Positions 19,182 through 62,680 of a stretch of 64,000 bases of DNA are shown in pieces. How positions within the stretch are numbered: position 1 is the stretch's first letter; each line of letters starts with the position of its first letter. Under the pieces are notes generated by a model. The model did no database searches and was not told the origin of the DNA. It saw only the letters and a program-made list of their open reading frames with translations. Made by a program: the position numbers and the translations under genes. The stretch is from the NCBI GenBank assembly GCA_001794215.1, contig MGJK01000012.1:4834-68833 (forward strand), read 5' to 3'. This stretch comes from Candidatus Yanofskybacteria bacterium RIFCSPHIGHO2_01_FULL_44_24. Lineage in GTDB: Bacteria > Patescibacteriota > Minisyncoccia > 2-02-FULL-40-12 > GWA2-44-9.

Positions 19182-20993
19182 ATGATTAAAAAAATTGCCC
19201 TCATAACTCCAATAAACGGTGACTGGGCCTACGATAGCTATATGGCTTTGGATGGGCTTATTCAGTTAAAGAAAGAGAAGCCCGATATTGAGTTTTTCAT
19301 TTCCTCAGATCCTTATAGAAAACATCCTTTTCCGGCAATCGAGTATGCTCTACCTAAAAAAGAATTTATCGAATTTGCAAAAAATGCCGATTTAATTTTG
19401 TTGTTCTGGTGCAAGAAGGATACAGATTCTAAATTGGCTGAAGAGATAGGGGAGTGGAACAAAACTGCCTATGTTGACGGTTCGGAATGGGGAATGAATA
19501 AGGGCCGGGACTTTGCGGTTCAGCGCGAGGTATTGTCGGGTGAATACAAAGACTGGGGACGGATAGATGATAAGATGCTCAGCCTGTGCCCTCTCTATTT
19601 CAGGCGAGAAAAGCCTTACATAAAAGGAGTTACTCCTTTGCCCTATGGTATAACTTCCACTTTCACGAAATATTATGAGCCGGCAAAGCCGAAAGATATA
19701 GACTTTTTCTGTGTCTGGGGACAGGACGAGTATCCTTTGACAAGAAGGTACGCCGAAGAGATTTTGGTTGATTTTTGCAAGAAGAACGGCTTCACTTATC
19801 ATGTTGAGAAAACCAAAAATCGCGACGAGTTTTATGAAATATTGTCCCGATCAAAGGTAGGGGTCTCGATAGGCGGCGGGGGATATGATACGGCTCGATT
19901 CTGGGAGATCTTGGGCAATAACTGCCTCCTTTTGACTGAAAGAATCGATATTTTAGAACCGGACAGTAGAGAACTCGACTACGAGAGAATCTATCAGTTC
20001 AATAATTTGTACGATTTTAAGTACCAGCTTGAAAAAGTAGCCAAGTTTTTAAGGGAAGAATATGCCAAAACGGATCTTCTACCGGAATATCAAGAGATTA
20101 TGTCCAAGCACTCGTCCAAGGCCCGGGTCTTAAAATTAATCCAAGAAGCCGAAGTTAAACTCAAAAAAGACGAAGAAAATGGGAAGCTTTGCAGTATAGT
20201 CGTATCTTCATTCGACGGAAATGCCGACATCTGGGACCCCTTCTTTACCCTCTTTTTTAGGTACTGGCCAAACTGCCCTTATCCTGTTTATTTAATAACC
20301 AACCGCAAAGAATACTCAGATAAAAGAGTAATTACGATTAAAGTAGGAGATGACAAGGGTTGGGCCACCAACATTCGTAATGCCCTGAAAGACATATCTA
20401 CGCCGTATGTCATAAACTTGATGGAAGACTTTTTAATAGAAAAACCGGTCAACAATCGATATATTCAATCTCTCGTTGATTACGCGAGCTTAAATAAAAT
20501 AGCCTACATACGCCTATTGCCTAACCCCGGACCTGATAAATATTTTCTAAACGACCTTAGTCTTGGGGAAATAGACAAAAAATCATCTTATAGAACCTCT
20601 CTTCATGCTGCTATTTGGGGTAAGAAAGTCTTCTTGGATTTATTAGTTGACGGAGAGAATCCTTGGAATATGGAACTTGAGGGATCGAAGCGATCGCAAG
20701 CTATAACCGAGCCGTTTCTCAGTGTTAAGGAGGCTGTACTCTACTATTATCATCGCACGGGGGTTATAAGGGGAAAGTGGATGTATGATGCGGTAAGGCT
20801 CTGCAAGCGAGAAGGCATTAAAGTTGATCTTAAGAAAAGAAGAATAGACTACGGCTGGAAAATTAATTCGATGTTCGATCAGATCAGGAAACATCCTTTG
20901 TTAAAAAGAGTTGGATCTATTCCCGCTCTGGGCTGGATTATCAAGAAAACATCGCGATCTCTTGTTGGTTTGATCAGTAATCGCGGATCCTAA
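19182..20993 (+). CDS. hypothetical two-domain protein (possible glycosyltransferase-like; unassigned)
   Basis: 603-aa ORF with coding-like composition in a glycan locus. No confidently recognised motif. Confidence 0.4.
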   Translation: MIKKIALITPINGDWAYDSYMALDGLIQLKKEKPDIEFFISSDPYRKHPFPAIEYALPKKEFIEFAKNADLILLFWCKKDTDSKLAEEIGEWNKTAYVDGSEWGMNKGRDFAVQREVLSGEYKDWGRIDDKMLSLCPLYFRREKPYIKGVTPLPYGITSTFTKYYEPAKPKDIDFFCVWGQDEYPLTRRYAEEILVDFCKKNGFTYHVEKTKNRDEFYEILSRSKVGVSIGGGGYDTARFWEILGNNCLLLTERIDILEPDSRELDYERIYQFNNLYDFKYQLEKVAKFLREEYAKTDLLPEYQEIMSKHSSKARVLKLIQEAEVKLKKDEENGKLCSIVVSSFDGNADIWDPFFTLFFRYWPNCPYPVYLITNRKEYSDKRVITIKVGDDKGWATNIRNALKDISTPYVINLMEDFLIEKPVNNRYIQSLVDYASLNKIAYIRLLPNPGPDKYFLNDLSLGEIDKKSSYRTSLHAAIWGKKVFLDLLVDGENPWNMELEGSKRSQAITEPFLSVKEAVLYYYHRTGVIRGKWMYDAVRLCKREGIKVDLKKRRIDYGWKINSMFDQIRKHPLLKRVGSIPALGWIIKKTSRSLVGLISNRGS

Positions 20994-21098
20994 AGGTTGA
21001 GGTTGTTATATCCTCAAATTGTGGTACCATATGGCCTGAATGGTGTCCTTTTACAATAAGGAGCGGAGTTGCTGATCAAAAAGAAACGCAACATCTAT

Positions 21099-23027
21099 AT
21101 GTCTCAGGTTAATTATCGATATGGAGATAACGCATTTTTACCATACTCAGTGGCCGTGCTACAGGCTTATGCTCAGGCTGAAAGCGAAATAAGAAATAGT
21201 TTTACATTCAAAGAGCTCATATTCCTTAGAGAGGATCCGGATCAGGTTGCTCGCAGAATGGAGAGCCCGTCTATATTAGCCCTCTCGTGCTATATGTGGA
21301 ATTGGGAATGGCAGAAACTGTTAGCCCAAGCAGTAAAAGCTTATTACCCCGACTGCTTAGTTATTATGGGCGGGATTCATATTCCGGAAAAATCTGATGG
21401 GTTTTTTCGAGAGTATCCCTATGTGGATCTGATTATCCACGGAGAGGGCGAGGTAACCTTTACCGCCGTTCTTCTTGCTTTTCTTTCCGGTGGAGGGTTC
21501 GAGTCCATGCCGGGAGTTAGTATCAGAAGGCCTGACAATTCGACCCTTAAAACATCTCTGCCGAATCGTATAAGCGATTTATCTAAATTGCCGTCACCTT
21601 ATTTGACCGGAGTCTTTGACTCGATTATAGATTTGCCGTTTCTCTGGAATGCCAGCCAAGAAACAAATCGTGGTTGTCCGTATCCATGCACCTTCTGTGC
21701 CTGGGGTCCGGCATATCAGCAAAAAGTTTGGCAGTTTAGCGAAGACCGAATAATTGAAGAATTAGAATGGTTCGGCCGGCATAGGATCGAATATATCTTC
21801 AATTGCGACGCCAATTGGGGAATTTTTGAAAGAGATTTGGAATTGACGCGAAAAATGGCTGAAATTAAAGCCAGATACCAAGGATATCCCAAGAAATTCA
21901 GGATGTGTACTGCTAAAAACAGCAATGATCGGGTTTTCGATATCAGCAGAATTCTTGATCGGGCCGGAATGAACAAGGGAGCGACGCTCAGTTTTCAAAG
22001 TATGAATGATACGGTCTTAGAGGCTGTTAAGCGCAGGAATATTAAGATCAAAGATTTTACCTCATACATGCGCCAGTATCGCGAGGCCAAGATAGCCACA
22101 TATACCGAGTTGATCATGGGATTGCCATGTGAGACATATACAACCTTCAAAGAGGGAATTGATAAGCTTATAAATGCCGGACAGCATAACGGTTTGAATA
22201 ACTATGTTTGCCTGATGCTTCCAAATGATGAGATGAGTGATCCGGATTATGTCCGTAAGCATCGGTTGGGGTGGGTGAAGATGCCTATTCTTCTTGCCCA
22301 CAGTACTCCAGGGTCGGATCCGGTCCAAGAGTATCAGGACGTTGTTGTCTCGACTAACTCCATGCCCGTAGAGGATTGGGAAAGAATTTTTATTTTCTCT
22401 TGGGCAGTGCAGTCATTTCACTGTCTCGGCCTGACTCAAACCATGGCTCTATTCTTAAGGAAACAATTTGGTGTTCAGTACAGTGTTTTTTACGAAAAGT
22501 TAATTGATTACTTTTCAAGTCGTCCTGAAACCCTTTTGGGTCAACAGCTTGTAAGAGTGTCCGATATAGTTTCCGGATCGATTCAGGGCGGAAGATTAGA
22601 TATGGTTATGCCTAAATTTGGCGAGATCTACTGGCCGCTAGAAGAGGCAGCTTTCCTCAATTGTGTTACTGACAAGGAAACATTCTATCGGGAATTGGCT
22701 GGGTTTGTAGATGATCTTTTAGGTCAATCCGGACGATCTGTCGATCGGACTTTACTGAGCAATCTCCTTTCTTATCAGAGGGCTCTTGTCGTGGATCCTT
22801 ATTCAGATGGCGAGTTTAGCGTTAATTTAGAATATGATCTTCATGACTACTTTGCCAAGGCTTACTTAGACGAAGAAGGCAAGCTGGCCTTAGCATCTAA
22901 TCGACTGGTCGTAAAACCATCAGTAGTTTTTAAAGGAGATTTAGTTTCTTATGCCCGAGAGATTGTCTGGTATGGTCGCAAGGGCGGTAAATTCTATCAT
23001 TCGGATGTTGAGGTCGCTCGCTTATAG
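21099..23027 (+). CDS. B12-binding domain radical SAM protein (class B radical SAM)
   Basis: Radical SAM cysteine motif NRGCPYPCTFCAWG (CxxxCxxC) preceded by an N-terminal cobalamin-binding-like domain (DCLVIMGGIHIP). The ORF finder used TTG at 21069; the ATG (MSQVNYRYG) is at 21099. Confidence 0.75.
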   Translation: MSQVNYRYGDNAFLPYSVAVLQAYAQAESEIRNSFTFKELIFLREDPDQVARRMESPSILALSCYMWNWEWQKLLAQAVKAYYPDCLVIMGGIHIPEKSDGFFREYPYVDLIIHGEGEVTFTAVLLAFLSGGGFESMPGVSIRRPDNSTLKTSLPNRISDLSKLPSPYLTGVFDSIIDLPFLWNASQETNRGCPYPCTFCAWGPAYQQKVWQFSEDRIIEELEWFGRHRIEYIFNCDANWGIFERDLELTRKMAEIKARYQGYPKKFRMCTAKNSNDRVFDISRILDRAGMNKGATLSFQSMNDTVLEAVKRRNIKIKDFTSYMRQYREAKIATYTELIMGLPCETYTTFKEGIDKLINAGQHNGLNNYVCLMLPNDEMSDPDYVRKHRLGWVKMPILLAHSTPGSDPVQEYQDVVVSTNSMPVEDWERIFIFSWAVQSFHCLGLTQTMALFLRKQFGVQYSVFYEKLIDYFSSRPETLLGQQLVRVSDIVSGSIQGGRLDMVMPKFGEIYWPLEEAAFLNCVTDKETFYRELAGFVDDLLGQSGRSVDRTLLSNLLSYQRALVVDPYSDGEFSVNLEYDLHDYFAKAYLDEEGKLALASNRLVVKPSVVFKGDLVSYAREIVWYGRKGGKFYHSDVEVARL

Positions 23028-23052
23028 AAAGAACCATGGATATACCATGGTT

Positions 23053-24021
23053 TTATTTTTTAATTTGTTCTCTATTCTTAAAGTCATAATAAAGTTTCAG
23101 CCAGTCCAGGAAAAAAATAGAAGGATATTTTTTGTTTTGAAAACGTAACGAGCGGTATTCAAGATGTCTTTGATGTTTACGCCAGTATAAATCTAAATGC
23201 GAAGGGTCGATAATTATGCAATATCTGGCAAAATCTTCTAAGGTATCTTCCATCGTAAATTTAACTTCCCGGCCGATTGTTTTTAGAAAAGTTGTAAAAA
23301 GATGGTTCTCGGGGCCTCCGAAGGAAAGAGGTTTTGTTAGCAGGTCAATTCGCCAATAAGCAGTCATATCTTTAATATGACCGAAGAGGAACTCATCGGA
23401 TAAGTGGTATAACTGAGATCCTAAAGCCTCTGTCCCCAGAGCTATTATGCGGTTTTTTAAAAAAATATTTTGTTCTTGAGAATTTTCCGGGGGGTAGAAT
23501 CTTGTTAGGTTATGCAAATGATCAATGATTTTTGGAGCATATATGCGCTGGTCATTTCGAGTGTTAAGTATGTATTCCACGCCTAATTCCGCTGCTTTTT
23601 CTATTCCTGCAATCGTAGTCGTAATTTGAAAATTAAGATGGAAAGGCCCGGCTATCGAGGGTTTTCTAACGAGGACAACTTCGGCACCTGCTTGGTAAAT
23701 TTTCTCGAGATAAGCCGGCTCCTCGTCATTCCAGGTGGATACCACAATAGGTACTTGAGGGTGAAGCTTTTTGTAGGTTCTTACGGTTTCAAGGGTAAAA
23801 TCATTGGGCTTAATAATTTCTCCCCTTATCAATATTGCCGTTTTGGGATTGACGACAGCGATGCCCATATTAGCTTTTACTTCTGAAGCTTTGACTGGTC
23901 TAATCCGGATGGTTATAAATTTACCCCTTGAATTCTCAATGAAATGCAAAATAGACACTGCGAGCTTTTTTATATAAAAAACTAATTTAATTCTGTATTT
24001 AGTTGGCGTTAAATAACTCAT
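23053..24021 (-). CDS. conserved polysaccharide-locus protein of unknown function (paralog of 39653..40615)
   Basis: 322 aa, about half identical by eye to the 320-aa protein at 39653 (shared NDFTLETVR.YKKLHP...VSTWNDE.PAYL.KI, TIAGI..A.LG.EY.L.TRNDQR.Y, YFPPENSQ, IIDP...DLY). Possibly WavE-like, but not confirmed. Confidence 0.5.
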   Translation of the reverse strand: MSYLTPTKYRIKLVFYIKKLAVSILHFIENSRGKFITIRIRPVKASEVKANMGIAVVNPKTAILIRGEIIKPNDFTLETVRTYKKLHPQVPIVVSTWNDEEPAYLEKIYQAGAEVVLVRKPSIAGPFHLNFQITTTIAGIEKAAELGVEYILNTRNDQRIYAPKIIDHLHNLTRFYPPENSQEQNIFLKNRIIALGTEALGSQLYHLSDEFLFGHIKDMTAYWRIDLLTKPLSFGGPENHLFTTFLKTIGREVKFTMEDTLEDFARYCIIIDPSHLDLYWRKHQRHLEYRSLRFQNKKYPSIFFLDWLKLYYDFKNREQIKK

Positions 24022-24142
24022 TTGGCGGAGTATCTTGGCAAGTATTATTCATTAAGATATCAATATTTTCGTATCTTAGCAATATTAAAAAAACTGGAGA
24101 ACGGTTGACCATCCGCTAAAGTATAGATAGAATAAAACTGCC

Positions 24143-24589
24143 ATGGTTTTAATATCGCATCGGGGCAATATTAGCGGTGAAAATCCGGAAAGGGAGAACA
24201 GTCCCGGGTATATTATAGAGGTTTTGACCCGAGGCTATAATGCCGAAATTGATGTAAGGCTTATTGATGGTATTTTTTGGCTTGGTCACGATGCTCCCCG
24301 ATATCAAATAGAGGAGAGCTTTTTGGAAAATGACAAATTGTGGTGTCATGCGAAGAACTTCGCGGCATTGGCAAAAATGCAGCAAAATAAAAAAATACAT
24401 TTTTTTTGGAATCAGGAAGACAATTTTGCCCTGACTTCAAAGGGGTTTATCTGGACATATAAAAGCAAAGAAATTTGTCCCGTGTCTGTGCTGGTTAAAC
24501 CGGAAGTACTGGGGATAACCGATAAAAAAAAGTTGCCGGATTGCTATGGCATTTGCTCTGATTTCGTAGCCAACTTTAATGAAATATAA
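24143..24589 (+). CDS. short glycerophosphodiester-phosphodiesterase-like protein
   Basis: VLISHRGN (HRG motif) and AEIDVRLIDGIFWLGHDAP (E-x-D-V...DG...HD motif) of the GDPD fold. Only 148 aa, so truncated relative to canonical GDPDs. Confidence 0.45.
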   Translation: MVLISHRGNISGENPERENSPGYIIEVLTRGYNAEIDVRLIDGIFWLGHDAPRYQIEESFLENDKLWCHAKNFAALAKMQQNKKIHFFWNQEDNFALTSKGFIWTYKSKEICPVSVLVKPEVLGITDKKKLPDCYGICSDFVANFNEI

Positions 24590-25190
24590 AGCTATAATTT
24601 TTGATTTGGATGGCGTATTGGTCAATATGCCTGCCGCTCACTTTGAGGCGCTAAACTGCGCTTTGAGTTTGTTTGGAGTTGCCATTGAGAAGGACGAGCA
24701 TTATAATTTTTTCAACGGGCTTCCTACCAGAAAAAAACTCGAAGAACTTGAGCGGAAGAACCGTCTTCCTGTTGGTTTACGTGAGTTTATTAACAGGATT
24801 AAGCAGAATTACACAAAAGATCTCATTCCGTCATATTGTGTTCCCGATTATTCGAAAATCATTCTTTTACGGTACCTCAAGGGACAGAATTATAAATTGG
24901 CATGCTGCTCAAATTCAATCAGTGAAACCCTCCACCTAATGTTAAAATCCGCCCATTTATTCGATTATTTTGATCTGATCCTGGGAAACGACGAGGTTAC
25001 CAACCCTAAACCGGATCCCGAAATTTATTTAACTGCCTTCAGGCGCTTGCAGGTTAAGCCAAGCGAATGTATTATTGTGGAGGATGCCCCTCATGGCATT
25101 GCGGCCGCAAAAGCCAGCGGGGCCAAGGTTCTTCAGGTTAGAAATACCGAAGACGTAAACTTATCTTTATTTTACAGCGAAGGCATTTAG
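24579..25190 (+). CDS. HAD-superfamily hydrolase (beta-phosphoglucomutase-like phosphatase)
   Basis: AIIFDLDGVLV motif I and a C-terminal IVEDAPHGIAAAKASG motif IV region. Confidence 0.75.
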   Translation: MKYKAIIFDLDGVLVNMPAAHFEALNCALSLFGVAIEKDEHYNFFNGLPTRKKLEELERKNRLPVGLREFINRIKQNYTKDLIPSYCVPDYSKIILLRYLKGQNYKLACCSNSISETLHLMLKSAHLFDYFDLILGNDEVTNPKPDPEIYLTAFRRLQVKPSECIIVEDAPHGIAAAKASGAKVLQVRNTEDVNLSLFYSEGI

Positions 25191-25213
25191 TTGCTCTAAG
25201 CTATCTATAGTTT

Positions 25214-25957
25214 ATGCTTAATATTGTTATTCCAATGGCCGGCAAGGGCTCAAGATTTCAGGAGGCAGGTTTTGTGTTTCCAAAACCGCTTATTGATGTG
25301 AAGGGGAAGGCCATGATAGAGCTGGTTGCAAGCAACCTCCGTCCCAGGTGTGCACACCGATTCATATTTATCTGCCAGAGAGAGCATGCAGAAAAATACG
25401 ACCTCCATAATATTTTAAAAAGTGCGACAAAAAATAAATTCGAGATTGTTCAGCTTGGAGGGATGACTCAAGGCGCTGCCTGCACGGTCTTAACCGCTGC
25501 GCAATATATCGATAACGATGATGATCTATTGATCGCCAACTCGGATCAGTTTATTGATTATGATATCAATGATTTTATCAATCGAGGACGCGCTAAGGGT
25601 GATGGATTAATCCTGACTTTTAAATCAAGTCATCCAAAATGGAGTTATGCGCGAGTCGACAGGGCAAGCAGGGTGGCGGAAGTTGCGGAAAAAAAAGTAA
25701 TCTCCGACAGGGCTACCGTGGGGATATATTATTTTAAGCACGGAAAACATTTTGTTGCCGCTGCCCAGGAGATGATTGCGAAAAATATAAGGTACAACAA
25801 TGAATTTTATGTATGCCCGGTTTTTAACGAGCTGATTTTAGGAGGGAAGCAAGTATTTACCAGGAATATATCTGTCGAAAAAATGCATGGCCTTGGTACG
25901 CCGGAAGATCTCAACGCATTTCTCCGCAAGCTGGATAGCGGTATCGTAAAAGTATAA
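25214..25957 (+). CDS. sugar-phosphate nucleotidyltransferase (LicC/IspD-like GT-A fold)
   Basis: N-term IVIPMAGKGSRFQEAGFVFPKPLIDVKGKAMIE (G-x-G-x-R nucleotide-binding motif). Confidence 0.65.
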   Translation: MLNIVIPMAGKGSRFQEAGFVFPKPLIDVKGKAMIELVASNLRPRCAHRFIFICQREHAEKYDLHNILKSATKNKFEIVQLGGMTQGAACTVLTAAQYIDNDDDLLIANSDQFIDYDINDFINRGRAKGDGLILTFKSSHPKWSYARVDRASRVAEVAEKKVISDRATVGIYYFKHGKHFVAAAQEMIAKNIRYNNEFYVCPVFNELILGGKQVFTRNISVEKMHGLGTPEDLNAFLRKLDSGIVKV

Positions 25958-25966
25958 TATTATGAA

Positions 25967-27781
25967 TTACGATGCCGGCGGCAAATCTGCGTAAGCGTTT
26001 ACGTTTTTATGCATTCTATAAAAATATGAATTCTGGTCGGCCAGTAAATCTCTTGGCGACCCTTCTTCTATCACTCTTCCCTGATTAACAACAATAAGCT
26101 TGTCGGAGTTTGTTATTGTCGAAAGTCGATGAGCTATTATTACTATGGTGATCTTGCCTCGTAATTGACTGATAGCATTTTGGATGAGGGCCTCCGATTC
26201 ATTGTCTATGGCGCTTGTAGCCTCATCCAAAATCAGTATTTTGGGTTTTCTTGCCAGCGCCCTAGCTAAAGATATTCTTTGTCTCTGTCCTCCGGAAAGC
26301 TTCAGACCCCTCTCTCCAACCAAAGTTTCAAATTTATCCGGCAAATTCTGGATTGTTTCATAAATGTCAGACATTTGGGCGGCTTCTACAACGTCGCGCC
26401 TGGACATTGAGTCATCGTAAAATTTTATATTATTCTCAATGGTATCATTTAGGAGAAACGTATCTTGGGGGACATAGCCTATGTTTCTTCTCCATTCTGT
26501 TAAGTTGACGGTAGAAATATTTTTATCATCCATCATAATTTCGCCTGCTCCCGGAATAAAAAGACGAAGAATCAGATCAACAAACGTGGTTTTTCCGGTT
26601 CCGGAGGGCCCGACAATACCAGTTATCTCCCCCCTCTGTATAGAACAGGAGATATCTGATAGTATTTTCTTTTGCGCATCATATGCAAAGCTAACATGAT
26701 TAAATTTTAATGCATGTTTGAAATCAAATCTCTCCCCATTTTCGTATATCTCCCTGTTGTTGCTTGTGACTTTTCGGTGTTCTATGACTAACTCAAGGAA
26801 AGGGAGCTGGGTGTTAATGCTCTGAATTTGACCCTGGGCGGATTCTAAAAAATTAAACATGCGTTGAATAAGATAAACTACGACTGTGAACGAAGCGATG
26901 CTGAAACCGGGCCTATGGTACGAAAACATAAATAAGAATGCCATGAATATCAGTCCGAGCGGCTCAAAAAGGGCATTGGCAAAAATTCCGTAGGTTAATG
27001 CCTTTGTTCTCGCATTCATTAATTCCTGAAAATAGTGACGGCCCCTCTCGATCACCTTATCTTCAGAAGATGTAGTCTTGATTATTTTAGCCCCGATCAT
27101 ACTTTCGCCTATATGGTGGCTTGCTATTTTATAAACATCGGCGATCCTTTTCGAAAGCTGACGCGTTCTAAAAAGTAACGGTTTAAGGCCGACAAAGATT
27201 AAGGCACCAGCAAGTATCGATAGTATCGTGATCGAAGCCGATACATTGAAGGCCACCAGACCGTACATGATAAAGCTTGTCATCGCGATCACAAAGGAAG
27301 TGAGAAGGTTCAGGATTCCTGCGCTTTGGCCCGTATCGCTTAAGATCAATCTTTCCAGATGGCCGATTTTTTGATTGATCAAGTATGGCCAAACGGCCCG
27401 AATGGTGTCTTCGAGTAAGATAGTCCTCGTTTCTTCTTCGTATTTTGCGGTCATTCTCTCATTCGTAAACTTAATCATAAATAACGTTATAGCTTTTAAA
27501 ATAAAAAGCGTGACTATGAGCATTAAAAGAAATGGCAGTGTAAGCGGAATGTGGAGAAAATTTAATAAATGCGCGACGATTTTATTTATAAAATCAGTTC
27601 CCTCGATTGTCTGATTTGTAAGCAGTGAAAAAATCGGGATTATGACGCTGATTCCCAAACTACCCAATAGTCCGGTTACAAAACCCAAGACTATCATGGT
27701 TGCAAACGCAATTTTGTATTGCCTGAAGGACTCCCTGATCAGTCCAGCGGCGCGTCCTATTTTATTGAGGTTTATGATCAT
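25967..27781 (-). CDS. ABC exporter, fused permease/ATP-binding protein (MsbA-like)
   Basis: Six-TM N-domain plus NBD with Walker A GPSGTGKTT, signature LSGGQRQRISLARAL and Walker B ILILDEATSAID. Confidence 0.85.
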   Translation of the reverse strand: MIINLNKIGRAAGLIRESFRQYKIAFATMIVLGFVTGLLGSLGISVIIPIFSLLTNQTIEGTDFINKIVAHLLNFLHIPLTLPFLLMLIVTLFILKAITLFMIKFTNERMTAKYEEETRTILLEDTIRAVWPYLINQKIGHLERLILSDTGQSAGILNLLTSFVIAMTSFIMYGLVAFNVSASITILSILAGALIFVGLKPLLFRTRQLSKRIADVYKIASHHIGESMIGAKIIKTTSSEDKVIERGRHYFQELMNARTKALTYGIFANALFEPLGLIFMAFLFMFSYHRPGFSIASFTVVVYLIQRMFNFLESAQGQIQSINTQLPFLELVIEHRKVTSNNREIYENGERFDFKHALKFNHVSFAYDAQKKILSDISCSIQRGEITGIVGPSGTGKTTFVDLILRLFIPGAGEIMMDDKNISTVNLTEWRRNIGYVPQDTFLLNDTIENNIKFYDDSMSRRDVVEAAQMSDIYETIQNLPDKFETLVGERGLKLSGGQRQRISLARALARKPKILILDEATSAIDNESEALIQNAISQLRGKITIVIIAHRLSTITNSDKLIVVNQGRVIEEGSPRDLLADQNSYFYRMHKNVNAYADLPPAS

Positions 27782-27789
27782 TTTCGAGG

Positions 27790-29580
27790 TCAGTCTTTTA
27801 TATGATAAGCTTTGTAAAAATGAGAACTTTTGTTCTTAAGCAATTCCTCCGGTCTTCCTTCTTCGATAATTCTGCCTTCCTCGAGCACCATCAGCTTATC
27901 CGCATTGGTGATAGTGCTTAAGCGGTGGGCAATGACTAAAATAGTAACCCTGCCCTTTAGGCCGCTAATTGCTTTTTGTATCAAAGCTTCTGATTCCGTA
28001 TCTACTGAACTTGTGGCTTCATCAAGGACGAGGATTTTCGGATTTCTTGCCAATGCCCTGGCCAGGACTATCCTCTGTCTTTGACCCCCGGACAGTTCAA
28101 TACCCCTTTCTCCCACTACGGTTTGAAATCTATCGGGAAGTTCAGAAACGAAATCGTATATGCTGGCCATTTTAATGGCCTTAATAATTTCCTCATGAGT
28201 TACGGTTTCGTCATAGAATTTGACGTTGTTCTCTATGGTGTCATTTAAAAGGAATATGTCTTGAGGGACATAACCGATGTTGTTTCGCCACGCCTTGAGA
28301 TCTATCTTCAGTATATTTTTACCGTCAAGCAGTATTTGGCCGCCGTCCGGTTCTAAGAGCCGTAGCAAGAGGTCTACGACAGTTGTTTTCCCTACTCCCG
28401 AGGGTCCGATGATCCCAACCACCTCTCCTTTTTGAATTGAAAAATTTAAATTCTTTAAAATTTCTCCTGAGCGAGGGTATGAAAATTCTATTCCCTTAAA
28501 CTCAAGAGACTTGTTAAATTCGAAATCATCAGTGCCACGATTTACCTCCACGCTATTCTTTGCAATAGTTTTGTATTCCGCCGTACTTTCCAGGTAGGGA
28601 ATCAATCCGTTAAATCCTTGCATTTGGCTTTGGGCCGACTGGATAAATGAAAACATTTTTTGGATTAGATAAACGACAACGCCAAAAGCAGCGATATTAA
28701 ATTCAGGAGTCCTATATGTGAAAATAAACAGAAGCCCCACGAAAGCTATGCCGGTAGGTTCGAGAGATTGTCCTAAAGAGTAGGTGTAAAAACTCATCTT
28801 TATTCTTGCCCTTCTCAACTTGTCGAAATAGTGGAGGCCCTTACTTATGACCCTATCCTCGGTTGAGGTGGCCTTCACTATCTTAGCGCCTATGATATTT
28901 TCTCCGACATGGTGGGCAACCTCCTTAAAGGTAGCACTTATTTCTTCTGAAATTTTCCTGGTCTTAAAAAATAACGGTTTGAAGAGAAAGAAAAGGATTC
29001 CTCCGAAGCCCATGGTCATGAGCGTAACGGTAGACGATATCTTGAATGCGACAAAGGCGTAGGCGATAAAGCTGGTCGCGATTAATATACTTGAACTTAC
29101 TTGGTTCAAGAGCGATGCGGCGTTGGATATATCAAATAAAAGCACCCTCTCAAGATAGCCAGTTTTTTGCTCCATTAAAGACGGCCAGTCGGCTTTCAGG
29201 GTTTTTTCGAACAGATCTTTTCGGAGATCTTCTTCGAGCCGGGCGACTAATTTTTCAGTATTGTATTTTGAGAAAAACTGGGTCAGGGCCTTTAACGCAA
29301 AGAGAGCGACCATAAAAGCGATCAAAAAAGCCGGCGTTAACGGAATATGAAGAAAAGAAAAAGACCAGGCTACGTTTCTTGTAATAAAGTCTGTGCCCTC
29401 TACGGCGACGTTAGAGAACAATGAGAATAGGGGAATAACGACGCCTATTCCTATGCTTCCGGCCAAACCGTTCAAAAAGCCAAGCAGGATGGTCAGAATA
29501 AGGCCGGATTTATACGGTCCTATAAGATCCTTACTTAATACAAAAATGTATTTTATTTTTTGGAAAGTATTCAGGCTCAT
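27790..29580 (-). CDS. ABC exporter, fused permease/ATP-binding protein (MsbA-like; probable heterodimer partner)
   Basis: Walker A GPSGVGKTT, signature LSGGQRQRIVLARAL and Walker B ILVLDEATSSVD. Adjacent to and co-directional with the paralog at 25967. Confidence 0.85.
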   Translation of the reverse strand: MSLNTFQKIKYIFVLSKDLIGPYKSGLILTILLGFLNGLAGSIGIGVVIPLFSLFSNVAVEGTDFITRNVAWSFSFLHIPLTPAFLIAFMVALFALKALTQFFSKYNTEKLVARLEEDLRKDLFEKTLKADWPSLMEQKTGYLERVLLFDISNAASLLNQVSSSILIATSFIAYAFVAFKISSTVTLMTMGFGGILFFLFKPLFFKTRKISEEISATFKEVAHHVGENIIGAKIVKATSTEDRVISKGLHYFDKLRRARIKMSFYTYSLGQSLEPTGIAFVGLLFIFTYRTPEFNIAAFGVVVYLIQKMFSFIQSAQSQMQGFNGLIPYLESTAEYKTIAKNSVEVNRGTDDFEFNKSLEFKGIEFSYPRSGEILKNLNFSIQKGEVVGIIGPSGVGKTTVVDLLLRLLEPDGGQILLDGKNILKIDLKAWRNNIGYVPQDIFLLNDTIENNVKFYDETVTHEEIIKAIKMASIYDFVSELPDRFQTVVGERGIELSGGQRQRIVLARALARNPKILVLDEATSSVDTESEALIQKAISGLKGRVTILVIAHRLSTITNADKLMVLEEGRIIEEGRPEELLKNKSSHFYKAYHIKD

Positions 29581-29588
29581 TAAAATAT

Positions 29589-30524
29589 TCAGCTGTTTTT
29601 AAGATACCAGTTCAGGGTTTCCTTGAGGCCGTTTTTTAATTTTATCTTAGCCGTAAATCCGAACTCCTTTTTGGCCTTGCTAATATCGATTGCTCTGCGG
29701 GGTTGGCCATCCGGCTTTTCTTTATCCCAGATAATTTTATTTTTGTAGTCCGCCACTTTGGATATAAGTCCCAGTAATTCCTTGATTGAGATTTCTTGCC
29801 CCGATCCGATATTGATCGGTTCCGGTTTATTGTATTTTGCCGTAGCTAAGACTATCGCTTCTGCCGCATCGTCGACATAAAGAAATTCTCGAGTAGCTTT
29901 GCCCGTACCCCATGCCTGAAGGGGCTTATTATTTTTCTTGGCCTCAACTATTTTGCGGACAAGGGCGGCAACAACGTGGCTTGAGGCGGGATCAAAGTTA
30001 TCGCCGGGGCCGTATAGATTCTCGAGGAGAAGGTGTATCGAGTTAAATCCGTATTCCTGTCTGTAGGCTTGGCCTTGTACCAAAACAGCCTTTTTCGCTA
30101 TTCCATAGGGAGCATTGGTTTCTTCGGGGTAGCCCAGCCAGAGATCTTCTTCTTTGAACGGTACGGGAGTAAATTTAGGGTATTCACAAACAGACCCGAT
30201 CATTATAAATTTCTTAACACCGGCCCTATGCGAAGCTTCCATCAGGTTGACTCCCATACTTATATTATCATAAAAGGCCTTTGCCGGATGTTCTTTGTTA
30301 TAGCCTATTCCTCCGACTATTGCTGCGCAATGGATTACGATATCTTGTTCGGCCGTCAGCTTCTCACAGTTGCTTAAGAGTCGTAAGTCGTAATCTTTTG
30401 AGCGGGGGATCGTTATATTTTTTTTCAATACTCCTGCCCGTACTAAGCGATCAGCAACCCGTCTACCCAAAAAACCGGCTCCACCGGTCAGCAATATTTT
30501 TTTATTTTTAAAATAATTATCCAT
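29589..30524 (-). CDS. GDP-L-fucose synthase family 3,5-epimerase/4-reductase (Fcl / GDP-colitose synthase ColC-like)
   Basis: ILLTGGAGFLG, IGSVCEYPK, NAPYGIAKK, NLYGPGDNFDPASSHVV and TREFLYVDD match the Fcl/WcaG family throughout. Confidence 0.8.
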   Translation of the reverse strand: MDNYFKNKKILLTGGAGFLGRRVADRLVRAGVLKKNITIPRSKDYDLRLLSNCEKLTAEQDIVIHCAAIVGGIGYNKEHPAKAFYDNISMGVNLMEASHRAGVKKFIMIGSVCEYPKFTPVPFKEEDLWLGYPEETNAPYGIAKKAVLVQGQAYRQEYGFNSIHLLLENLYGPGDNFDPASSHVVAALVRKIVEAKKNNKPLQAWGTGKATREFLYVDDAAEAIVLATAKYNKPEPINIGSGQEISIKELLGLISKVADYKNKIIWDKEKPDGQPRRAIDISKAKKEFGFTAKIKLKNGLKETLNWYLKNS

Positions 30525-30532
30525 TTTGTTTG

Positions 30533-30976
30533 TTATTTAAATCCCGCTGATGCAAGAACCTCGCGAACGTATTTAGGCCATTGCTTATCTATGCGTGAAA
30601 ACCACTGAATGGTCGAATGCTGGCTATCCGGCCGAGTATTACCCGCTGATTTTATTGTAACGGCGTGTATGATATTAATATTGTGGCAGGGGTACTTGAA
30701 GGCGCTGTCGGGGAAAAATACTTCGTTTACTGTCAGGAAGCGGATCTTTGTAATCACACTTGTCGATAATCCGGTTTCTTCTTTTATTTTACGCATTACA
30801 GCGTTTAATATTTTTTCATTTTTTAAAATTCTTCCACCGGGAAACCACCATTTATTTTTTGCCGGCGCGTTGGCTCTTTTGCCGAGCAAGAATTTGCGCC
30901 GATGGATTAAAATAAACTCCACGCATGTAATGGGCATTGTCTCAACAATTTTCTTGTACGAAGCCTTGCTGATCAT
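30533..30976 (-). CDS. Nudix hydrolase (GDP-mannose mannosyl hydrolase-like)
   Basis: Nudix box GGRILKNEKILNAVMRKIKEETGL (G-x5-E-x7-REUxEExGU). Sits between the dehydratase and reductase, as gmm does in gmd-fcl clusters. Confidence 0.7.
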   Translation of the reverse strand: MISKASYKKIVETMPITCVEFILIHRRKFLLGKRANAPAKNKWWFPGGRILKNEKILNAVMRKIKEETGLSTSVITKIRFLTVNEVFFPDSAFKYPCHNINIIHAVTIKSAGNTRPDSQHSTIQWFSRIDKQWPKYVREVLASAGFK

Positions 30977-30986
30977 TAGCTCTTTG

Positions 30987-32159
30987 TTATCTTACCAACG
31001 CGGTAATTATTTTGAGATCCGAGTTAGTCAGTTCAGGATTATTGCCGAAATAAAATCCATTTCTATGCGCGAATTCGGCATTGGGACAGCTTGATGTTTC
31101 GGTTTGATCCCGATTATGTTTCTTAAAAAATGGCTGAAGAATCATACTGCCGCCGACAATGGGTCGAATTTCAAGTTTATTTTTTAGCTTTTTAACGAGC
31201 CTGTCGTGATCTCCTTGCGAGCGGCATAATACCGGAAAGGCAAAGTTCGAGACCATGTCTATATGGGAGTGGCGCAGAGGAATAAAGGCCCTATTGGCGT
31301 AGATTGTTTTAGCTAACTGAGTAAAGTTTTGATTTCTTTTTTGAATTATTTTATCTATGTGACGGAGCTGTTCGTTGCCCAAGAATCCATTGATTTCTGT
31401 CGGGCGCAAGTTATAGCCCAAATCATAAAATGTATATTGGGCATGGAACTGCTTTACTCTGTGTTTAGCCCTTAATTCCTCTTTTTCTTCCTCTTCTAAG
31501 TGTCTATCCCAACCGTGGGCTCGGACTATTCTGAGCATTTTAGCCAAGTCTTTATCGTCAGTGCAGACCGCCCCGCCCTCTATAGTTGACATATGATGAC
31601 CTACGAAGAAGGAAAAGGTACTGGCTAATCCAAAATTTCCTAACTTCTTACCCTTATATACAGTACCCAGGGCTTCACAATTATCCTCGATTAGGATCAT
31701 ATTTTGGTCTTGGCAGATTTTCTTTATTTGGTCTATGTCGTGGCAAAAACCGAGAAGGTTCGTTATAAAGAGTGCTTTTAGACCTTTGTTTTTTAGGGAC
31801 TCAGTTACTTTCTTGCTGGATATATTCAGAGTATCCAGTTCAATGTCTATGGGTACGGGCCTTAGTCCAAGCTGGATCAGCGGCATTACGTTGGTAGCCC
31901 AAGTTAAAGCAGAGAAACCGACCTCGTTGCCCGGCTTTAGTTGGCCGGAGTTCAATAGTGCCTGAATAAGCGCCAAGTTAGCCGAGCTGCCGCTGTTAAA
32001 GAAGATACAGTACTTTCTACCCTGGTACTCGGCGAAATTCTTTTCAAATTTTTCACATTCCGGTCCGAAGCTTAGTTGACTGGTTCGGCCGATGAAGTTA
32101 GTGAGCTTATCTTTTGTCTCTCTCTCCCGGTAGAAGGTAGATTTTATCAGTTTAATCAT
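30987..32159 (-). CDS. PLP-dependent DegT-family sugar 3-dehydratase, ColD-like (GDP-4-keto-6-deoxy-D-mannose 3-dehydratase)
   Basis: DegT/AHBA-synthase fold ([20 protein letters not shown]). In the Schiff-base motif [17 protein letters not shown] the usual Lys is replaced by His (His188 by my count), the hallmark of ColD/E1-type dehydratases. Confidence 0.65.
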
Positions 32160-33178
32160 ATTTTTATTCCTTCATTTCTTAGATCCGCCTCTACCATGAT
32201 TCTAACCAAGTCTTCAAATTTAGTTTTGGGCTTCCAGCCAAGAATCTTCGTTGCCTTAGTCGGATCGGCCTTAAGGACATTAACTTCTGTTGGCCGATAA
32301 TAGCGCGGATCAATCTCGATGTATTTTTTGTAGCTACCGAGACCCGCCACTTGGAAGGCGAGCTTCACGAATTCTTTTACCGAATGAGTTTCTCCGGTCC
32401 CTATGACATAGTCGTCTGGTTTGTTTTGCTGAAGCATTAGCCACATTGCTTCGCAATATTCAGGAGCATAACCCCAGTCTCTTTTGGCCTCCAGATTGCC
32501 TAAATATATCTTCTTATCTTTTCCGGCTACGATTCGAGCTATGCCCCGGGTTATTTTTTTGGTCACAAAAGTTCCTCCTCGTCGGGGGCTTTCATGATTA
32601 AATAGTATTCCATTGGAGGCGAATATATTGTAGGCCTCCCTGTAATTTACGGTTGTGTTGTAGGCAAAAACCTTGGCGACAGCATAAGGACTTCTGGGAT
32701 GAAAAGATGTATTTTCGTTTTGCGGCGGAGGAGCGGAACCGAACATTTCAGAACTGGATGCTTGGTAGAACTTCACTTTTTGTCCGGTGTCATGTTGGTA
32801 GTCCTTGATTGCTTCTAAGATTCTGAGAGTTCCAAGGCCGGTTATGTCTGCTGTGTATTCCGGAATATCGAAAGATACCCTCACATGAGATTGCGCACCC
32901 AAATTGTATATTTCCTGGGGCTTGATTGAGTAGAGCAGTCTCCTTATAGTATTTGAATCCGCCAAGTCCCCATAATGAATTATTAATTTTGGCTTCTTCT
33001 CGTGAATATCTTTGAGTATGTGTTCTACGCGTCCGGTAATGAAAGTACTGGAGCGTCGCATGATTCCATGAACCTCGTATCCTTTTTCAAGTAAAAATTC
33101 AGCTAAGTATGAGCCGTCTTGTCCGGTAATCCCAGTTATTAGAGCCACCTTGGCTTTCTGGTTTTTCTTCAAATTCAT
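32156..33178 (-). CDS. gmd: GDP-mannose 4,6-dehydratase
   Basis: [30 protein letters not shown] and a YAVAKVFA catalytic Y-x3-K region. Full-length Gmd-like, 340 aa. Confidence 0.85.
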
Positions 33179-34034: not shown

Positions 34035-34059
34035 AACAGGATTTGTCTGAAAGCGATAA

Positions 34060-34410: not shown

Positions 34411-34475
34411 TATCGTTGATTTAATTAATTATTTCCTGTAACATCACAATGAATAAATCGGGAGGAGCTTAAACC

Positions 34476-62626: not shown

Positions 62627-62680
62627 TCAGCATTTTTATATTACTCTAAGCGGCAGCAAATTGAAAACGGGAGAAATAAA

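Follow-up and report, generated by a model that had tools for sequence, protein, structure and literature searches.

Class B radical SAM methylases of the TokK/CysS clade have been studied in natural-product pathways, and to our knowledge all characterised members of the clade tailor antibiotics. TokK and ThnK, which are 79% identical to each other, are the C6 methylases of carbapenem biosynthesis in Streptomyces (PDB 7KDX, 7KDY). CysS, the cystobactamid methylase, performs iterative radical methylation and converts an O-methyl group into ethyl, isopropyl and tert-butyl groups on an aromatic carrier-linked substrate (PDB 9N1B-D). The large C-terminal domain that marks this clade forms the substrate tunnel, which in TokK accommodates the long tail of its pantetheinylated substrate. 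A tryptophan lies below the cobalt (W76 in TokK, W75 in CysS) and a second one, W215 in TokK, between the cluster and cobalamin. In radical methylases the lower face of cobalamin is typically hydrophobic, whereas non-radical or non-methylase members have a polar residue there. In TokK, R280 anchors the substrate carboxylate and the R280Q variant is nearly dead, and in CysS W271 acts as hydrogen-bonding and gate residue.

KedN5 also belongs to a natural-product pathway, for which an isopropoxy-forming role has been proposed. Class B radical C-methylation of sugars or related molecules is the work of GenK, GenD1 and Fom3, whose substrates are aminoglycoside sugars or a CMP-activated alcohol and which belong to antibiotic pathways, not to cell-surface glycan loci. 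The words sugar, glycan and polysaccharide are all absent from a 2026 review of B12-radical SAM enzymes. Moreover, we found no published characterisation or biochemistry of glycan-linked TokK-like enzymes, and literature on polysaccharide, O-antigen, polyprenyl-phosphate, colitose and Patescibacteria/CPR yielded nothing relevant on TokK-like or B12-radical SAM enzymes.

A TokK/CysS-clade protein in a CPR bacterium

The window, the whole 64 kb stretch of DNA analysed here, comes from a Candidatus Yanofskybacteria (CPR) bacterium. It contains an intact, uninterrupted reading frame for a radical SAM protein (hereafter rSAM; Table 1). The initial annotation placed its start at 21099, which is an ATG inside the frame. 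The TTG at 21069 is the more likely start, because it is preceded by AAGGAG and because the residues ahead of the methionine at 21099 are kept in the family consensus (...KxNVxLxQVNY...) and form the first Rossmann beta-strand of the model (E7-12). Public annotations are split between the 652 aa and 642 aa starts.

Table 1. Features of the window around the rSAM gene (domain limits and functions as predicted)
Feature	Position	Strand	Basis
Two-domain glycosyltransferase, 603 aa, upstream of rSAM	19182..20993	+	weak Pfam Glyco_trans_1_2 match; AF2
Shine-Dalgarno-like AAGGAG	21058..21063	+	read from sequence, 5 nt 5' of TTG start
TokK/CysS-clade cobalamin-dependent radical SAM enzyme (rSAM), 652 aa	21069..23027	+	ORF call, TokK homology, AF2 model
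N-terminal cobalamin-binding Rossmann domain, ~aa 1-185, includes W77	21069..21623	+	Pfam PF02310 aa 56-134; strand/helix pattern of model
Radical SAM core domain, ~aa 186-430, includes R278	21624..22358	+	Pfam PF04055 aa 200-365
CxxxCxxC [4Fe-4S] cluster motif (C203, C207, C210), then W212	21675..21698	+	translation
TokK-type C-terminal domain, mostly helical, ~aa 431-652, WYGRKGG at end	22359..23024	+	phmmer to aa 597; full-length Foldseek; conservation
Terminator-like hairpin, 10 bp stem + T-run, between convergent rSAM and WavE-like genes	23030..23054	.	sequence
WavE-like putative glycosyltransferase, 322 aa, convergent with rSAM	23053..24021	-	Pfam WavE
148-aa unknown, HAD (beta-phosphoglucomutase-like) hydrolase, sugar-1-phosphate nucleotidylyltransferase	24143..25957	+	profile matches
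Two MsbA/HepA-like ABC exporters	25967..29580	-	profile matches
GDP-L-fucose-synthase-like (ColC-like) SDR	29589..30524	-	NCBIfam NF047922, 278 bits
NUDIX hydrolase resembling GDP-mannose mannosyl hydrolase	30533..30976	-	profile matches
DegT-family enzyme, ColD/RfbH-type sugar 3-dehydratase	30987..32159	-	NCBIfam RfbH, 239 bits; His for catalytic Lys
GDP-mannose 4,6-dehydratase (GMD)	32156..33178	-	TIGR01472, 524 bits vs cut-off 415
Class I SAM methyltransferase (33270-34034) and TylC3-type NDP-hexose C-methyltransferase (34476-35738)	33270..35738	+	profile matches

A class B radical SAM enzyme had been announced from the CxxxCxxC signature and a B12-like N-domain, and this assignment holds. 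The Pfam Radical_SAM and B12-binding models both match above their cut-offs (36.7 bits versus 29.5 and 35.1 bits versus 32.1, respectively), and the cluster motif, which in this superfamily lies in a partial TIM-barrel core, reads C203-P-Y-P-C207-T-F-C210 (CPYPCTFC). By these sequence marks the protein is a member of the radical SAM superfamily and, with an N-terminal Rossmann domain that is predicted to bind cobalamin joined to the radical SAM core, of its class B.

Chance cannot account for these similarities: the protein database yielded 1856 homologues of rSAM, and TokK (7kdx) was matched with E=2.7e-118 over aa 20-597 (phmmer), with 36.7% identity over 596 aa (BLASTP). CysS, which is 31% identical, was matched with E=2.8e-61. 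The AF2 model (pLDDT 90.5) superposes on cobalamin-bound TokK; in Foldseek comparisons it aligned with TokK 7kdy_A over its full length (TM 0.91/0.90, rmsd 2.6 A, 685 columns), with CysS at TM 0.78, and with TsrM and OxsB at TM <=0.5 only. Sequence and modelled fold thus agree that rSAM belongs to the TokK/CysS clade, sharing the three-domain layout of TokK and ThnK with its large third domain. This C-terminal domain carries a 10-residue deletion relative to TokK and ends in the WYGRKGG motif, of which W634, Y635, R637 and K638 are conserved in the family alignments.

Membership of the clade does not make the protein a TokK/ThnK orthologue, a possibility that we rejected on the identity to TokK, far below that of TokK to ThnK, and on the surroundings: unlike TokK and ThnK, rSAM has no carbapenem gene cluster around it and its neighbours are glycan genes. 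Two Streptomyces homologues (L012 and L014; loci of the comparison bear L numbers) were likewise rejected as TokK orthologues, being 37% identical to TokK and 44-45% to the window protein; next to them lie an inositol-monophosphatase-family gene and a class I/II aminotransferase gene, not carbapenem genes.

The best NCBIfam model was KedN5 (NF033712), which covered only aa 24-391 and scored 285.2 bits, far below its curated cut-off of 700. All other NCBIfam matches were weak: the P-methylase (PhpK, Sden_1168), HpnJ, HpnR and BchE families stood at 43-61 bits for cut-offs of 481-650. The NCBIfam matches included no GenK or Fom3 model, the nearest listed models reaching at most 61 bits. GenK, GenD1 and Fom3 are not detectably closer to rSAM than other class B families, and their likeness to it is a functional analogy only, namely cobalamin-dependent radical C-methylation of a sugar or nucleotide-activated small molecule.

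The residues expected around the cofactors are all present. All of 195 relatives carry C203, C207 and C210, and all of them also have W77 and W212, the equivalents of TokK W76 under the cobalt and of TokK W215. R278 aligns with TokK R280 and with CysS W271, so that a tryptophan of CysS stands where rSAM and TokK carry arginine. This arginine is invariant in an alignment of 23 sequences of the CPR clade and the position varies among Clostridial paralogues, as would be expected of a specificity determinant. The pantetheine contacts of TokK are not kept: L408, at a variable position, takes the place of Y410, and a serine beside the 10-residue deletion that of N515. A counterpart of TokK Tyr652 was sought with the C-terminal 91 residues of rSAM, which gave no sequence match.

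C-methylation, P-methylation and epimerisation had all been offered as the reaction; only the first is favoured by our results. The PhpK and Sden_1168 P-methylase models gave 44-57 bits, and the scanned ORFs contained no phosphonate-pathway family match. As for epimerisation or another non-methylase reaction, OxsB and BchE show that class B enzymes of this kind exist, and the weakness of every NCBIfam match besides KedN5 would be compatible with it. However, TokK and CysS are far closer in fold than OxsB, and the residue under the cobalt is a hydrophobic tryptophan as in radical methylases, not a polar one. We therefore give very little credence to a non-methylase chemistry.

Glycan genes around rSAM and a GDP-colitose-type operon

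The sugar-tailoring context proposed for the gene is borne out. Throughout the 64 kb, the ORFs with a family match belong to glycan biosynthesis, the exceptions being an IS integrase, two 23S-rRNA-IVP proteins, a GIY-YIG nuclease and a kinase-like ORF. On the glycan side, the ORFs encode GT4, GT2 and WavE glycosyltransferases, SDRs, GMD, DegT-family and NeuB proteins, nucleotidyltransferases, methyltransferases and ABC exporters. Whereas TokK and ThnK are encoded in an antibiotic cluster, rSAM, in a CPR bacterium, has genes for GDP-deoxysugars and glycosyltransferases around it.

The immediate neighbours are where the initial annotation had put them, a 603-aa ORF upstream on the same strand and a convergent 322-aa ORF with a paralogue (39653-40615, 53% identical). 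Neither of them deserves the label unknown. The N-terminal part of the 603-aa protein is GT-B-like and its C-terminal ~265 aa (nt 20178-20963) form a divergent GT-A domain (AF2 pLDDT 93.6) whose fold matches B4GALNT1, WrtF, TarP and SpsA. This domain has stand-alone homologues in related loci and is a conserved rSAM neighbour in the subclade of the window protein. We rejected the entire 603-aa protein as the conserved partner, since only the GT-A domain recurs; at L003, the two genes upstream of rSAM are not homologous to it. The paralogous 322-aa family is real, and both copies match Pfam WavE.

Beyond the WavE-like gene lies an operon (29589-33178) with the enzymes expected of a GDP-L-colitose-type 3,6-dideoxyhexose pathway: a GMD, a His-type 3-dehydratase and an Fcl-like epimerase/reductase, the latter scoring 278 bits against an Fcl cut-off of 500. 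In the DegT-family enzyme the motif reads SFFVGHHM and its first histidine aligns with the catalytic lysine of normal DegT proteins, a replacement that is the hallmark of ColD/RfbH-type 3-dehydratases (10.1101/2021.09.04.459008). The operon is, as predicted from these sequences, a GDP-colitose-type route to a 3,6-dideoxy sugar, a rare kind of cell-surface sugar. It is displaced from rSAM by an insertion of ~6.5 kb, to which the WavE-like gene belongs, and now lies 6.5-10 kb away.

Other parts of the block recur elsewhere. Homologues of the MsbA/HepA-like exporter are syntenic in L086, L087 and L088, and L086 and L087 also preserve the synteny of the class I SAM methyltransferase and TylC3-type genes with the rSAM block. 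The window holds a second, IS-split copy of the TylC3/EvaC type (11920-14532). These SAM-dependent enzymes put C-methyl branches on NDP-4-keto-deoxysugars; their fold is unrelated to that of rSAM, and they use polar enolate chemistry, limited to the carbons adjoining the 4-keto group. With a C-methyltransferase of this kind already in the block, it is not obvious why a radical methylase would be needed. By analogy, a radical enzyme could, unlike the TylC3/EvaC type, reach unactivated carbons or lengthen an existing methyl group.

No cobalamin uptake, transport or salvage gene was found among the ORFs of the window and 10 kb on each side (~84 kb), which we also count against a methylcobalamin-dependent enzyme. 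The same ORFs include no carrier protein, PPTase, adenylating enzyme or phosphonate (PEP-mutase) gene.

Linkage in homologous loci

Besides the window, the comparison took in 8 non-redundant loci at which rSAM is at least 57% identical to that of the window. A His-type DegT gene lies within 3.1 kb of rSAM in 6 of the 8, an Fcl/ColC-like SDR gene within 5.4 kb in 7, and a GT-A domain protein within 4 kb in 6. At L089, the SDR, NUDIX, ColD-like and GMD genes directly adjoin rSAM in the gene order of the window. In the nearest homologues, rSAM directly adjoins the GDP-colitose-type operon, and the divergent GT-A glycosyltransferase is adjacent too. Over all loci, the DegT-family neighbours are of the His type in 25 cases and of the Lys type in 7.

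A second partner appears when more distant relatives are included. In 43 of 82 loci an rSAM copy is directly adjoined by a small GT2 (227-265 aa) resembling polyprenyl-phosphate-hexose synthases, with matches to AglJ, dolichyl-phosphate hexose transferase and PpgS (NCBIfam) and to DPMS and ArnC (PDB). The small GT2 and the window-type GT-A domain are mutually exclusive as rSAM neighbours. At L007, L009, L010 and L085/L130, with 49-52% identity, only the small GT2 stands beside rSAM and no deoxysugar gene lies within 10 kb; therefore, a colitose-type substrate cannot apply clade-wide. At L085 the small GT2 and rSAM form a two-gene island amid ribosomal, FtsH and RecG housekeeping genes.

These loci raise the possibility that the same chemistry acts on a sugar linked to a lipid. 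A GT-A polyprenyl-phosphate-sugar synthase would make a polyprenyl-phosphate monosaccharide, which would be methylated at the cytoplasmic face, flipped and moved to the surface glycan. The frequent pairing with the small GT2, its reduction to two genes at L085 and the mutual exclusion of the two partners are in line with this, and a tunnel for a long-tailed substrate, as in TokK, would suit a polyprenyl tail. However, the window has no member of the small-GT2 family, the best match being 16 bits for the GT2 at 18154-19035. We also rejected the window GT-A domain as a member of that family. The two are not detectably related, because the hhalign probability is 0.8%; they have in common a fold class only, and the domain matches generic GT-A folds. 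Moreover, the direct partners in the subclade of the window protein are soluble GDP-sugar enzymes. For the window enzyme, we consider a lipid-linked substrate rather unlikely.

A carrier-bound substrate was weighed in the same manner. Since TokK and CysS, the structurally characterised relatives, take pantetheinylated substrates rather than sugars, rSAM might methylate an acyl or aryl group held on pantetheine or a carrier protein, which would later decorate the glycan without being a sugar itself, for example as N-acyl on an amino sugar. At L001, a PPTase, an AMP-dependent ligase and a 77-aa ORF lie 6-8 kb upstream of rSAM; this ORF has no Pfam match and is, by size and position only, a possible carrier protein. 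No such gene was found in the window or its 10 kb flanks, the TokK contacts Y410 and N515 are not conserved, and minimal loci have a GT2 as the sole partner of rSAM, all of which makes a carrier-bound substrate improbable.

Finally, rSAM could be a housekeeping B12-radical SAM enzyme that lies in a sugar island by chance and has no role in glycans, as the ribosomal, FtsH and RecG neighbours of the L085 homologue may suggest. Yet even that copy is paired with a GT2, and sugar genes adjoin rSAM in most loci with adequate flank, in several phyla, the Streptomyces loci L012 and L014 being the exception. Sugar loci also surround the homologues from CPR bacteria, DPANN archaea, Proteobacteria and Clostridia. 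The distribution is patchy, with several copies in Clostridia and tandem paralogues numbering at least 11 in one locus, and a patchy, multi-copy gene is unlike a housekeeping one. The initial annotation had named a best match to housekeeping families, with synteny outside sugar loci, as the outcome to look for against it; the best matches turned out to be TokK, CysS and KedN5, and the syntenic genes are sugar genes. A housekeeping role, already disfavoured on these grounds, is extremely unlikely.

Discussion

Clade membership, modelled fold, cofactor motifs and linked genes, as described above, are the grounds on which we infer the chemistry, its possible iterativity and the substrate. In our reading, rSAM is probably a methylcobalamin-dependent radical enzyme that C-methylates, perhaps iteratively, either a GDP-3,6-dideoxyhexose intermediate or an activated sugar closely related to it. 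By homology, one SAM would methylate cob(I)alamin to methylcobalamin, and a second SAM would be cleaved at the [4Fe-4S] cluster bound by C203, C207 and C210, generating a 5'-deoxyadenosyl radical. This radical would take a hydrogen atom from the substrate, at an unactivated sp3 carbon, and the methyl group of methylcobalamin would then pass to the substrate radical. The cycle might be repeated, as in TokK and CysS.

The gene linkage points to an activated deoxysugar of a surface-glycan pathway as substrate, most likely an intermediate or product of the GDP-colitose-type route, which would run from GMD through the ColD-like 3-dehydratase to the ColC-like reductase. One candidate target is the ring methylene beside the 4-keto group of GDP-4-keto-3,6-dideoxymannose, which is chemically analogous to the target of TokK, the C6 methylene beside the beta-lactam carbonyl. 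Alternatively, a methyl group already present on the sugar might be the target. Arg278, at the position of TokK Arg280, would anchor the substrate by a negatively charged group, its anomeric phosphate or else a carboxylate, and the nucleotide or a lipid tail would fill the tunnel that takes pantetheine in TokK. The conserved GT-A glycosyltransferase encoded next to rSAM would then transfer the modified sugar. The linkage suggests that this sugar is an undescribed carbon-methylated one. Two facts weigh against methylation of a nucleotide sugar, namely the pantetheinylated substrates of TokK and CysS and the distance of the operon from rSAM in the window.

We speculate further, and only tentatively, that the large TokK-like clade found in CPR, DPANN, some Proteobacteria and gut Clostridia makes previously undescribed alkyl-branched deoxysugars of surface glycans, carrying methyl and perhaps ethyl or isopropyl branches. 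Radical tailoring of sugars had been called rare outside antibiotic pathways. This rarity may reflect a lack of study; the clade is widespread in glycan loci.

Altogether, TokK/CysS-type radical machinery, in this gene and in hundreds of relatives, sits in cell-envelope glycan pathways, next to GDP-3,6-dideoxyhexose genes and dedicated GT-A transferases. GMD and the ColD-like dehydratase, which would make the substrate, are encoded nearby and methods to produce cobalamin-loaded TokK and CysS exist, so the proposal can be tested directly. If it is true, class B radical SAM enzymes would gain a new class of substrates, namely sugars of primary surface glycans activated by a nucleotide or a lipid, and new branched sugars would be predicted as antigens. 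As far as we know, CPR organisms generally lack cofactor biosynthesis. A requirement for B12 would then be a concrete metabolic dependency of these organisms on their partners and, should the sugars indeed be alkyl-branched, the surface chemistry of ultra-small symbionts would hang on cobamides scavenged from the community.

Results

Gene structure and family membership

The radical SAM gene reported by the initial annotation is real: it is an unbroken reading frame in our ORF call, and its product (rSAM) passes the Pfam gathering thresholds of both Radical_SAM (36.7 bits, threshold 29.5) and B12-binding (35.1 bits, threshold 32.1). That annotation had used the 642-aa version beginning at an internal ATG. 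We take the upstream TTG as the start, because AAGGAG precedes it and because the ten residues ahead of the internal Met are kept in relatives (consensus '...KxNVxLxQVNYQYG') and make up the first beta-strand (E7-12) of the modelled Rossmann fold. Both starts occur in public annotations of the identical protein (database entries P0001, 652 aa, and P0003, 642 aa), which comes from two genome bins of Candidatus Yanofskybacteria (CPR/Parcubacteria).

The enzyme carries the cluster motif C203-PYP-C207-TF-C210. Its top PDB sequence match is the carbapenem C6 methylase TokK (E=2.7e-118, query aa 20-597 against TokK 19-610), and CysS of the cystobactamid pathway was also found (E=2.8e-61). By BLASTP the protein is 36.7% identical to TokK over 596 aa and 31% identical to CysS; between TokK and CysS the figure is 29%. 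An AlphaFold2 model built from a 23-sequence family alignment was confident (mean pLDDT 90.5, pTM 0.89) and superposed on TokK (7kdy_A) over its entire length (Foldseek TM 0.91/0.90, rmsd 2.6 A); therefore the large C-terminal domain reported as distinct to TokK is present. CysS came second (TM 0.78), and TsrM, OxsB, glutamine methylase and AprD4 were well behind both (TM at most 0.5). Among NCBIfam models KedN5 scored highest, at 285 bits over the N-terminal 390 residues only and far under its cut-off of 700, so that membership of this family is not reached; the remaining class B models, HpnJ, HpnR, BchE, PhpK, the Sden_1168 P-methylase, TsrM and AprD4 included, gave at most 61 bits. The class B assignment thus holds and is narrowed: rSAM belongs to the TokK/CysS structural clade, every tested defining feature of which it shows.

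Residues with documented roles point the same way. A hydrophobic lower face of the cobalamin is typical of radical methylases, and W77 (TokK W76, CysS W75), beneath the cobalt, is invariant in 195/195 relatives. So is W212, the counterpart of TokK W215, whose substitution slows methylation dramatically. We regard the protein as very probably a Cbl-dependent radical methylase; some other, non-methylase chemistry is less likely. R278 corresponds to TokK R280, which holds the substrate carboxylate and whose change to Gln leaves TokK nearly inactive, whereas CysS has a Trp here (W271), a substrate hydrogen-bond donor and gate. R278 is invariant in the CPR-type clade, and the position varies (R/Q/K/E/G) among Clostridial paralogues, the pattern expected of a specificity-determining contact. 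The pantetheine contacts of TokK are not kept: Y410 aligns with a variable Leu (L408) and N515 with a Ser beside a 10-residue deletion. In the window and its 10 kb flanks we saw no carrier protein, PPTase or phosphonate genes, and a pantetheine-linked acyl substrate is the less likely reading. An orthologue of TokK or ThnK, which share 79% identity, was ruled out (37% identity, unconserved tail-binding residues, no carbapenem cluster).

The glycan island

With five exceptions (an IS integrase, two 23S-rRNA-IVP genes, a GIY-YIG nuclease and a kinase-like ORF), the window ORFs with a family match belong to glycan synthesis. They include many GT4 and GT2 glycosyltransferases and two WavE-like proteins, class I methyltransferases, two TylC3-type sugar C-methyltransferases, SDR dehydratases/reductases, DegT-family enzymes, two NeuB, two CMP-sugar synthetases, nucleotidyltransferase/HAD pairs and two ABC exporters. 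To the right (flank L170) the island runs on for at least 10 kb with Glyphos_transf, Hexapep acetyltransferase, DegT, SDR, flippase and Wzy_C/TPR genes, an initiating phosphoglycosyltransferase (Bac_transf) and UDP-glucose dehydrogenase, and therefore exceeds 74 kb. To the left (flank L169) there is one further GT4 (L169 8799-9899), and glycan genes end about 2.4 kb past the window; beyond lie mostly uncharacterised genes with a Y1 transposase, NUDIX, LCAT-like and tRNA-binding proteins.

Several genes of the island are duplicated or broken (see the table). One TylC3-type gene is interrupted by the integrase gene and has an intact paralogue. A GT4 appears split into two ORFs, which may reflect a frameshift or a pseudogene.

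Features of the window, with positions in nucleotides
Feature	Position	Strand	Remarks
23S rRNA-intervening-sequence protein genes	8485-8883; 46558-46908		dispersed within the island
Kinase-like ORF	8899-9468		non-glycan exception
TylC3-type NDP-hexose C-methyltransferase, first piece	11920-12621		N-terminal Zn and methyltransferase domains
rve-integrase (IS) gene	12637-13875	opposite to TylC3-type gene	
TylC3-type gene, second piece	13945-14532		C-terminal domain
603-aa protein gene upstream of rSAM	19182-20993		GT-B-like N-terminal part fused to C-terminal GT-A domain
AAGGAG	21058-21063		precedes TTG
rSAM gene	21069-23027	+	TTG 21069, 652 aa; ATG 21099, 642 aa
Terminator-like hairpin	23030-23054		10-bp stem and T-run, 3' of rSAM stop codon, before convergent gene
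WavE/HAD/nucleotidyltransferase module, first copy	23053-25957	WavE-like -, others +	HAD-type phosphatase
SDR, NUDIX, His-type DegT, GMD	29589-33178		
Intact TylC3-type paralogue	34476-35738		
GT4 in two ORFs	37271-38224; 38339-38617		317 aa; 92 aa (end of Glycos_transf_1)
WavE/HAD/nucleotidyltransferase module, second copy	39653-43131	WavE-like -, others +	
GatZ/KbaZ-like gene	43043-44125		additional, second module
GIY-YIG nuclease gene	44501-44788		within the island
Nonulosonic-acid genes, two sets	46980-47702; 53321-54475; 60882-63823		NeuB-family (two), CMP-sugar cytidylyltransferase (two), UDP-GlcNAc 2-epimerase

A deoxysugar operon linked to the enzyme

We compared the window with the eight other non-redundant loci of its subclade (rSAM identity of at least 57%). 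In six of the eight, a DegT gene whose catalytic Lys is replaced by His is found no more than 3.1 kb from rSAM; in seven, an Fcl-like SDR is found within 5.4 kb. In locus L089, SDR, NUDIX, His-DegT and GMD are directly convergent on rSAM, in the order found in the window, where about 6.5 kb intervene (the WavE-like gene, a 148-aa ORF, HAD, nucleotidyltransferase and two ABC exporters). The window GMD scores 524 bits, above the equivalog cut-off of 415; RfbH is the top match of the His-type DegT (239 bits), whose motif is SFFVGHHM where an ordinary DegT of the same window has SLYPSK; and the best models of the SDR and NUDIX proteins are GDP-fucose synthase and GDP-mannose mannosyl hydrolase. 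The Lys-to-His exchange has been given as the hallmark of nucleotide-sugar 3-dehydratases, among them ColD, whose substrate is GDP-4-keto-6-deoxymannose (10.1101/2021.09.04.459008). Across all loci of the family, DegT neighbours are 25 His-type against 7 Lys-type. Judged from sequence, the linked operon is a GDP-colitose-type 3,6-dideoxyhexose pathway, since it combines GMD, a His-type DegT bearing this hallmark and an Fcl-like SDR.

Glycosyltransferase partners

The neighbour upstream of rSAM, described at first as an unknown protein, is indeed adjacent but can now be assigned: its N-terminal part has a weak Glyco_trans_1_2 match (aa 177-320), and its C-terminal domain (aa 333-594), without a Pfam family, adopts a GT-A fold in a model of about 265 aa (AlphaFold2, pLDDT 93.6) with Foldseek matches to B4GALNT1, GDP-fucose-dependent WrtF, TarP and SpsA. 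Likewise, the convergent gene does have a paralogue (53% identity), but its family is WavE-like rather than unknown. A homologue of the GT-A domain occurs within 4 kb of rSAM in six of the eight subclade loci, directly upstream in four. The domain also stands alone (240-280 aa, 66 homologues, mostly Patescibacteria), with D19, W25, W36, W68, D90, W153, E166 and E172 invariant.

Elsewhere the recurring partner is a small GT2 of 227-265 aa, found directly beside an rSAM copy at 43 of 82 loci. Its NCBIfam matches are AglJ, dolichyl-phosphate hexose transferase and PpgS and its PDB matches DPMS and ArnC, which makes it polyprenyl-phosphate-sugar-synthase-like. This pairing in sister clades speaks for a lipid-linked sugar as the substrate, the main rival to a nucleotide-activated one; no member of the small GT2 family is encoded in the window. 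The two transferases are mutually exclusive as rSAM neighbours, and no homology between them is detectable. In locus L085 small GT2, rSAM and one unknown gene stand alone amid housekeeping genes; a housekeeping role for rSAM itself is less likely than one in glycan synthesis. A TokK-like rSAM with a dedicated GT-A glycosyltransferase is the common denominator of the family, to which the window's subclade adds the deoxysugar operon.

Relatives and their distribution

The family counts 1856 protein-database matches, at least 559 relatives confirmed out of 600 pattern matches listed from 185,579 GTDB species-representative genomes, and 326 in the metagenome scan; ORFs were called in 168 loci for neighbour comparison. 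Hosts include many Patescibacteria lineages, DPANN archaea, Alphaproteobacteria, Magnetococcus, Elusimicrobiota, Planctomycetota and Streptomyces, and the family is very abundant in gut Clostridia. There (L041 and L022, L070, L026 and other Acutalibacteraceae loci), full-length TokK-like paralogues stand in tandem, with at least 11 copies across about 43 kb of contig CAZTCR010000001.1 (L041 and L022); they share 34-39% identity with the window protein. Each array has one small GT2 resembling polyprenyl-phosphate-hexose synthase, often with GHMP kinase, NTP-transferase-HAD fusion and cupin genes.

The Streptomyces homologues (L012 5747-7687, S. swartbergensis; L014, S. massasporeus) are 44-45% identical to the CPR protein against 37% to TokK. 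They are flanked by an inositol-monophosphatase-family gene on one side and a class I/II aminotransferase on the other, with an NB-ARC/TPR regulator alongside; together these resemble a small, uncharacterised gene cluster that might make an amino-sugar or cyclitol. At one Parcubacteria locus (L001/L002 1259-3846), genes for an acetyltransferase, a 4'-phosphopantetheinyl transferase and an AMP-dependent ligase are found 6-8 kb upstream of rSAM together with a 77-aa ORF without Pfam match, which its size and position alone make a candidate carrier protein. They adjoin a CDP-glycerol glycerophosphotransferase, and we read the group as a possible acyl-carrier decoration system of a CPR glycan locus. 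Some members of the rSAM family contain inserted intein domains (Pfam PF14890): P0113 (991 aa), P0118 (839 aa) and the one at L154.

Discussion

By homology, SAM would methylate cob(I)alamin, the C203/C207/C210 cluster would reductively cleave a second SAM, the 5'-deoxyadenosyl radical would take a hydrogen from a substrate sp3 carbon, and the substrate radical would capture the methyl of methylcobalamin. Both solved relatives, TokK and CysS, methylate iteratively, so the window enzyme may add more than one methyl group.

The sugar-tailoring context first proposed is borne out by the surrounding glycan genes, the GDP-3,6-dideoxyhexose operon and the GT-A transferase. We consider it reasonably probable that the methylation target of rSAM is an activated sugar from the glycan pathway; the linkage is observed, the chemistry we infer. 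That a GDP-3,6-dideoxyhexose is the specific substrate is a more tentative proposal, drawn from gene linkage. The preferred candidate would be GDP-4-keto-3,6-dideoxymannose or its reduced product: its C3 ring methylene, beside the 4-keto group, would closely resemble, in chemical terms, the carbapenam C6 methylene beside the beta-lactam carbonyl. Alternatively, rSAM could extend a methyl put on by the TylC3-type or class I methyltransferases encoded nearby, as in TokK steps 2 and 3 or in CysS. With an activated sugar, R278 might bind the anomeric phosphate or some other negatively charged group, and GMP or a lipid tail might fill the tunnel position of pantetheine.

To our knowledge, radical C-methylation of sugars has been described so far only in antibiotic pathways (GenK, GenD1), and a literature search found no paper on a glycan-linked TokK-like clade. 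As far as is known, CPR organisms generally lack cofactor biosynthesis. Cobalamin transport or salvage genes, which the initial annotation had proposed to look for, were not seen in the window and its 10 kb flanks (about 84 kb). For a CPR genome, estimated at about 1 Mb, an island of more than 74 kb would be a large share, if that estimate holds. Altogether, the rSAM machinery is known; the substrate class, which is predicted, and the biological setting are new, and a predicted B12 requirement in a CPR bacterium, of whose genome about 84 kb was inspected, is a further point of interest.
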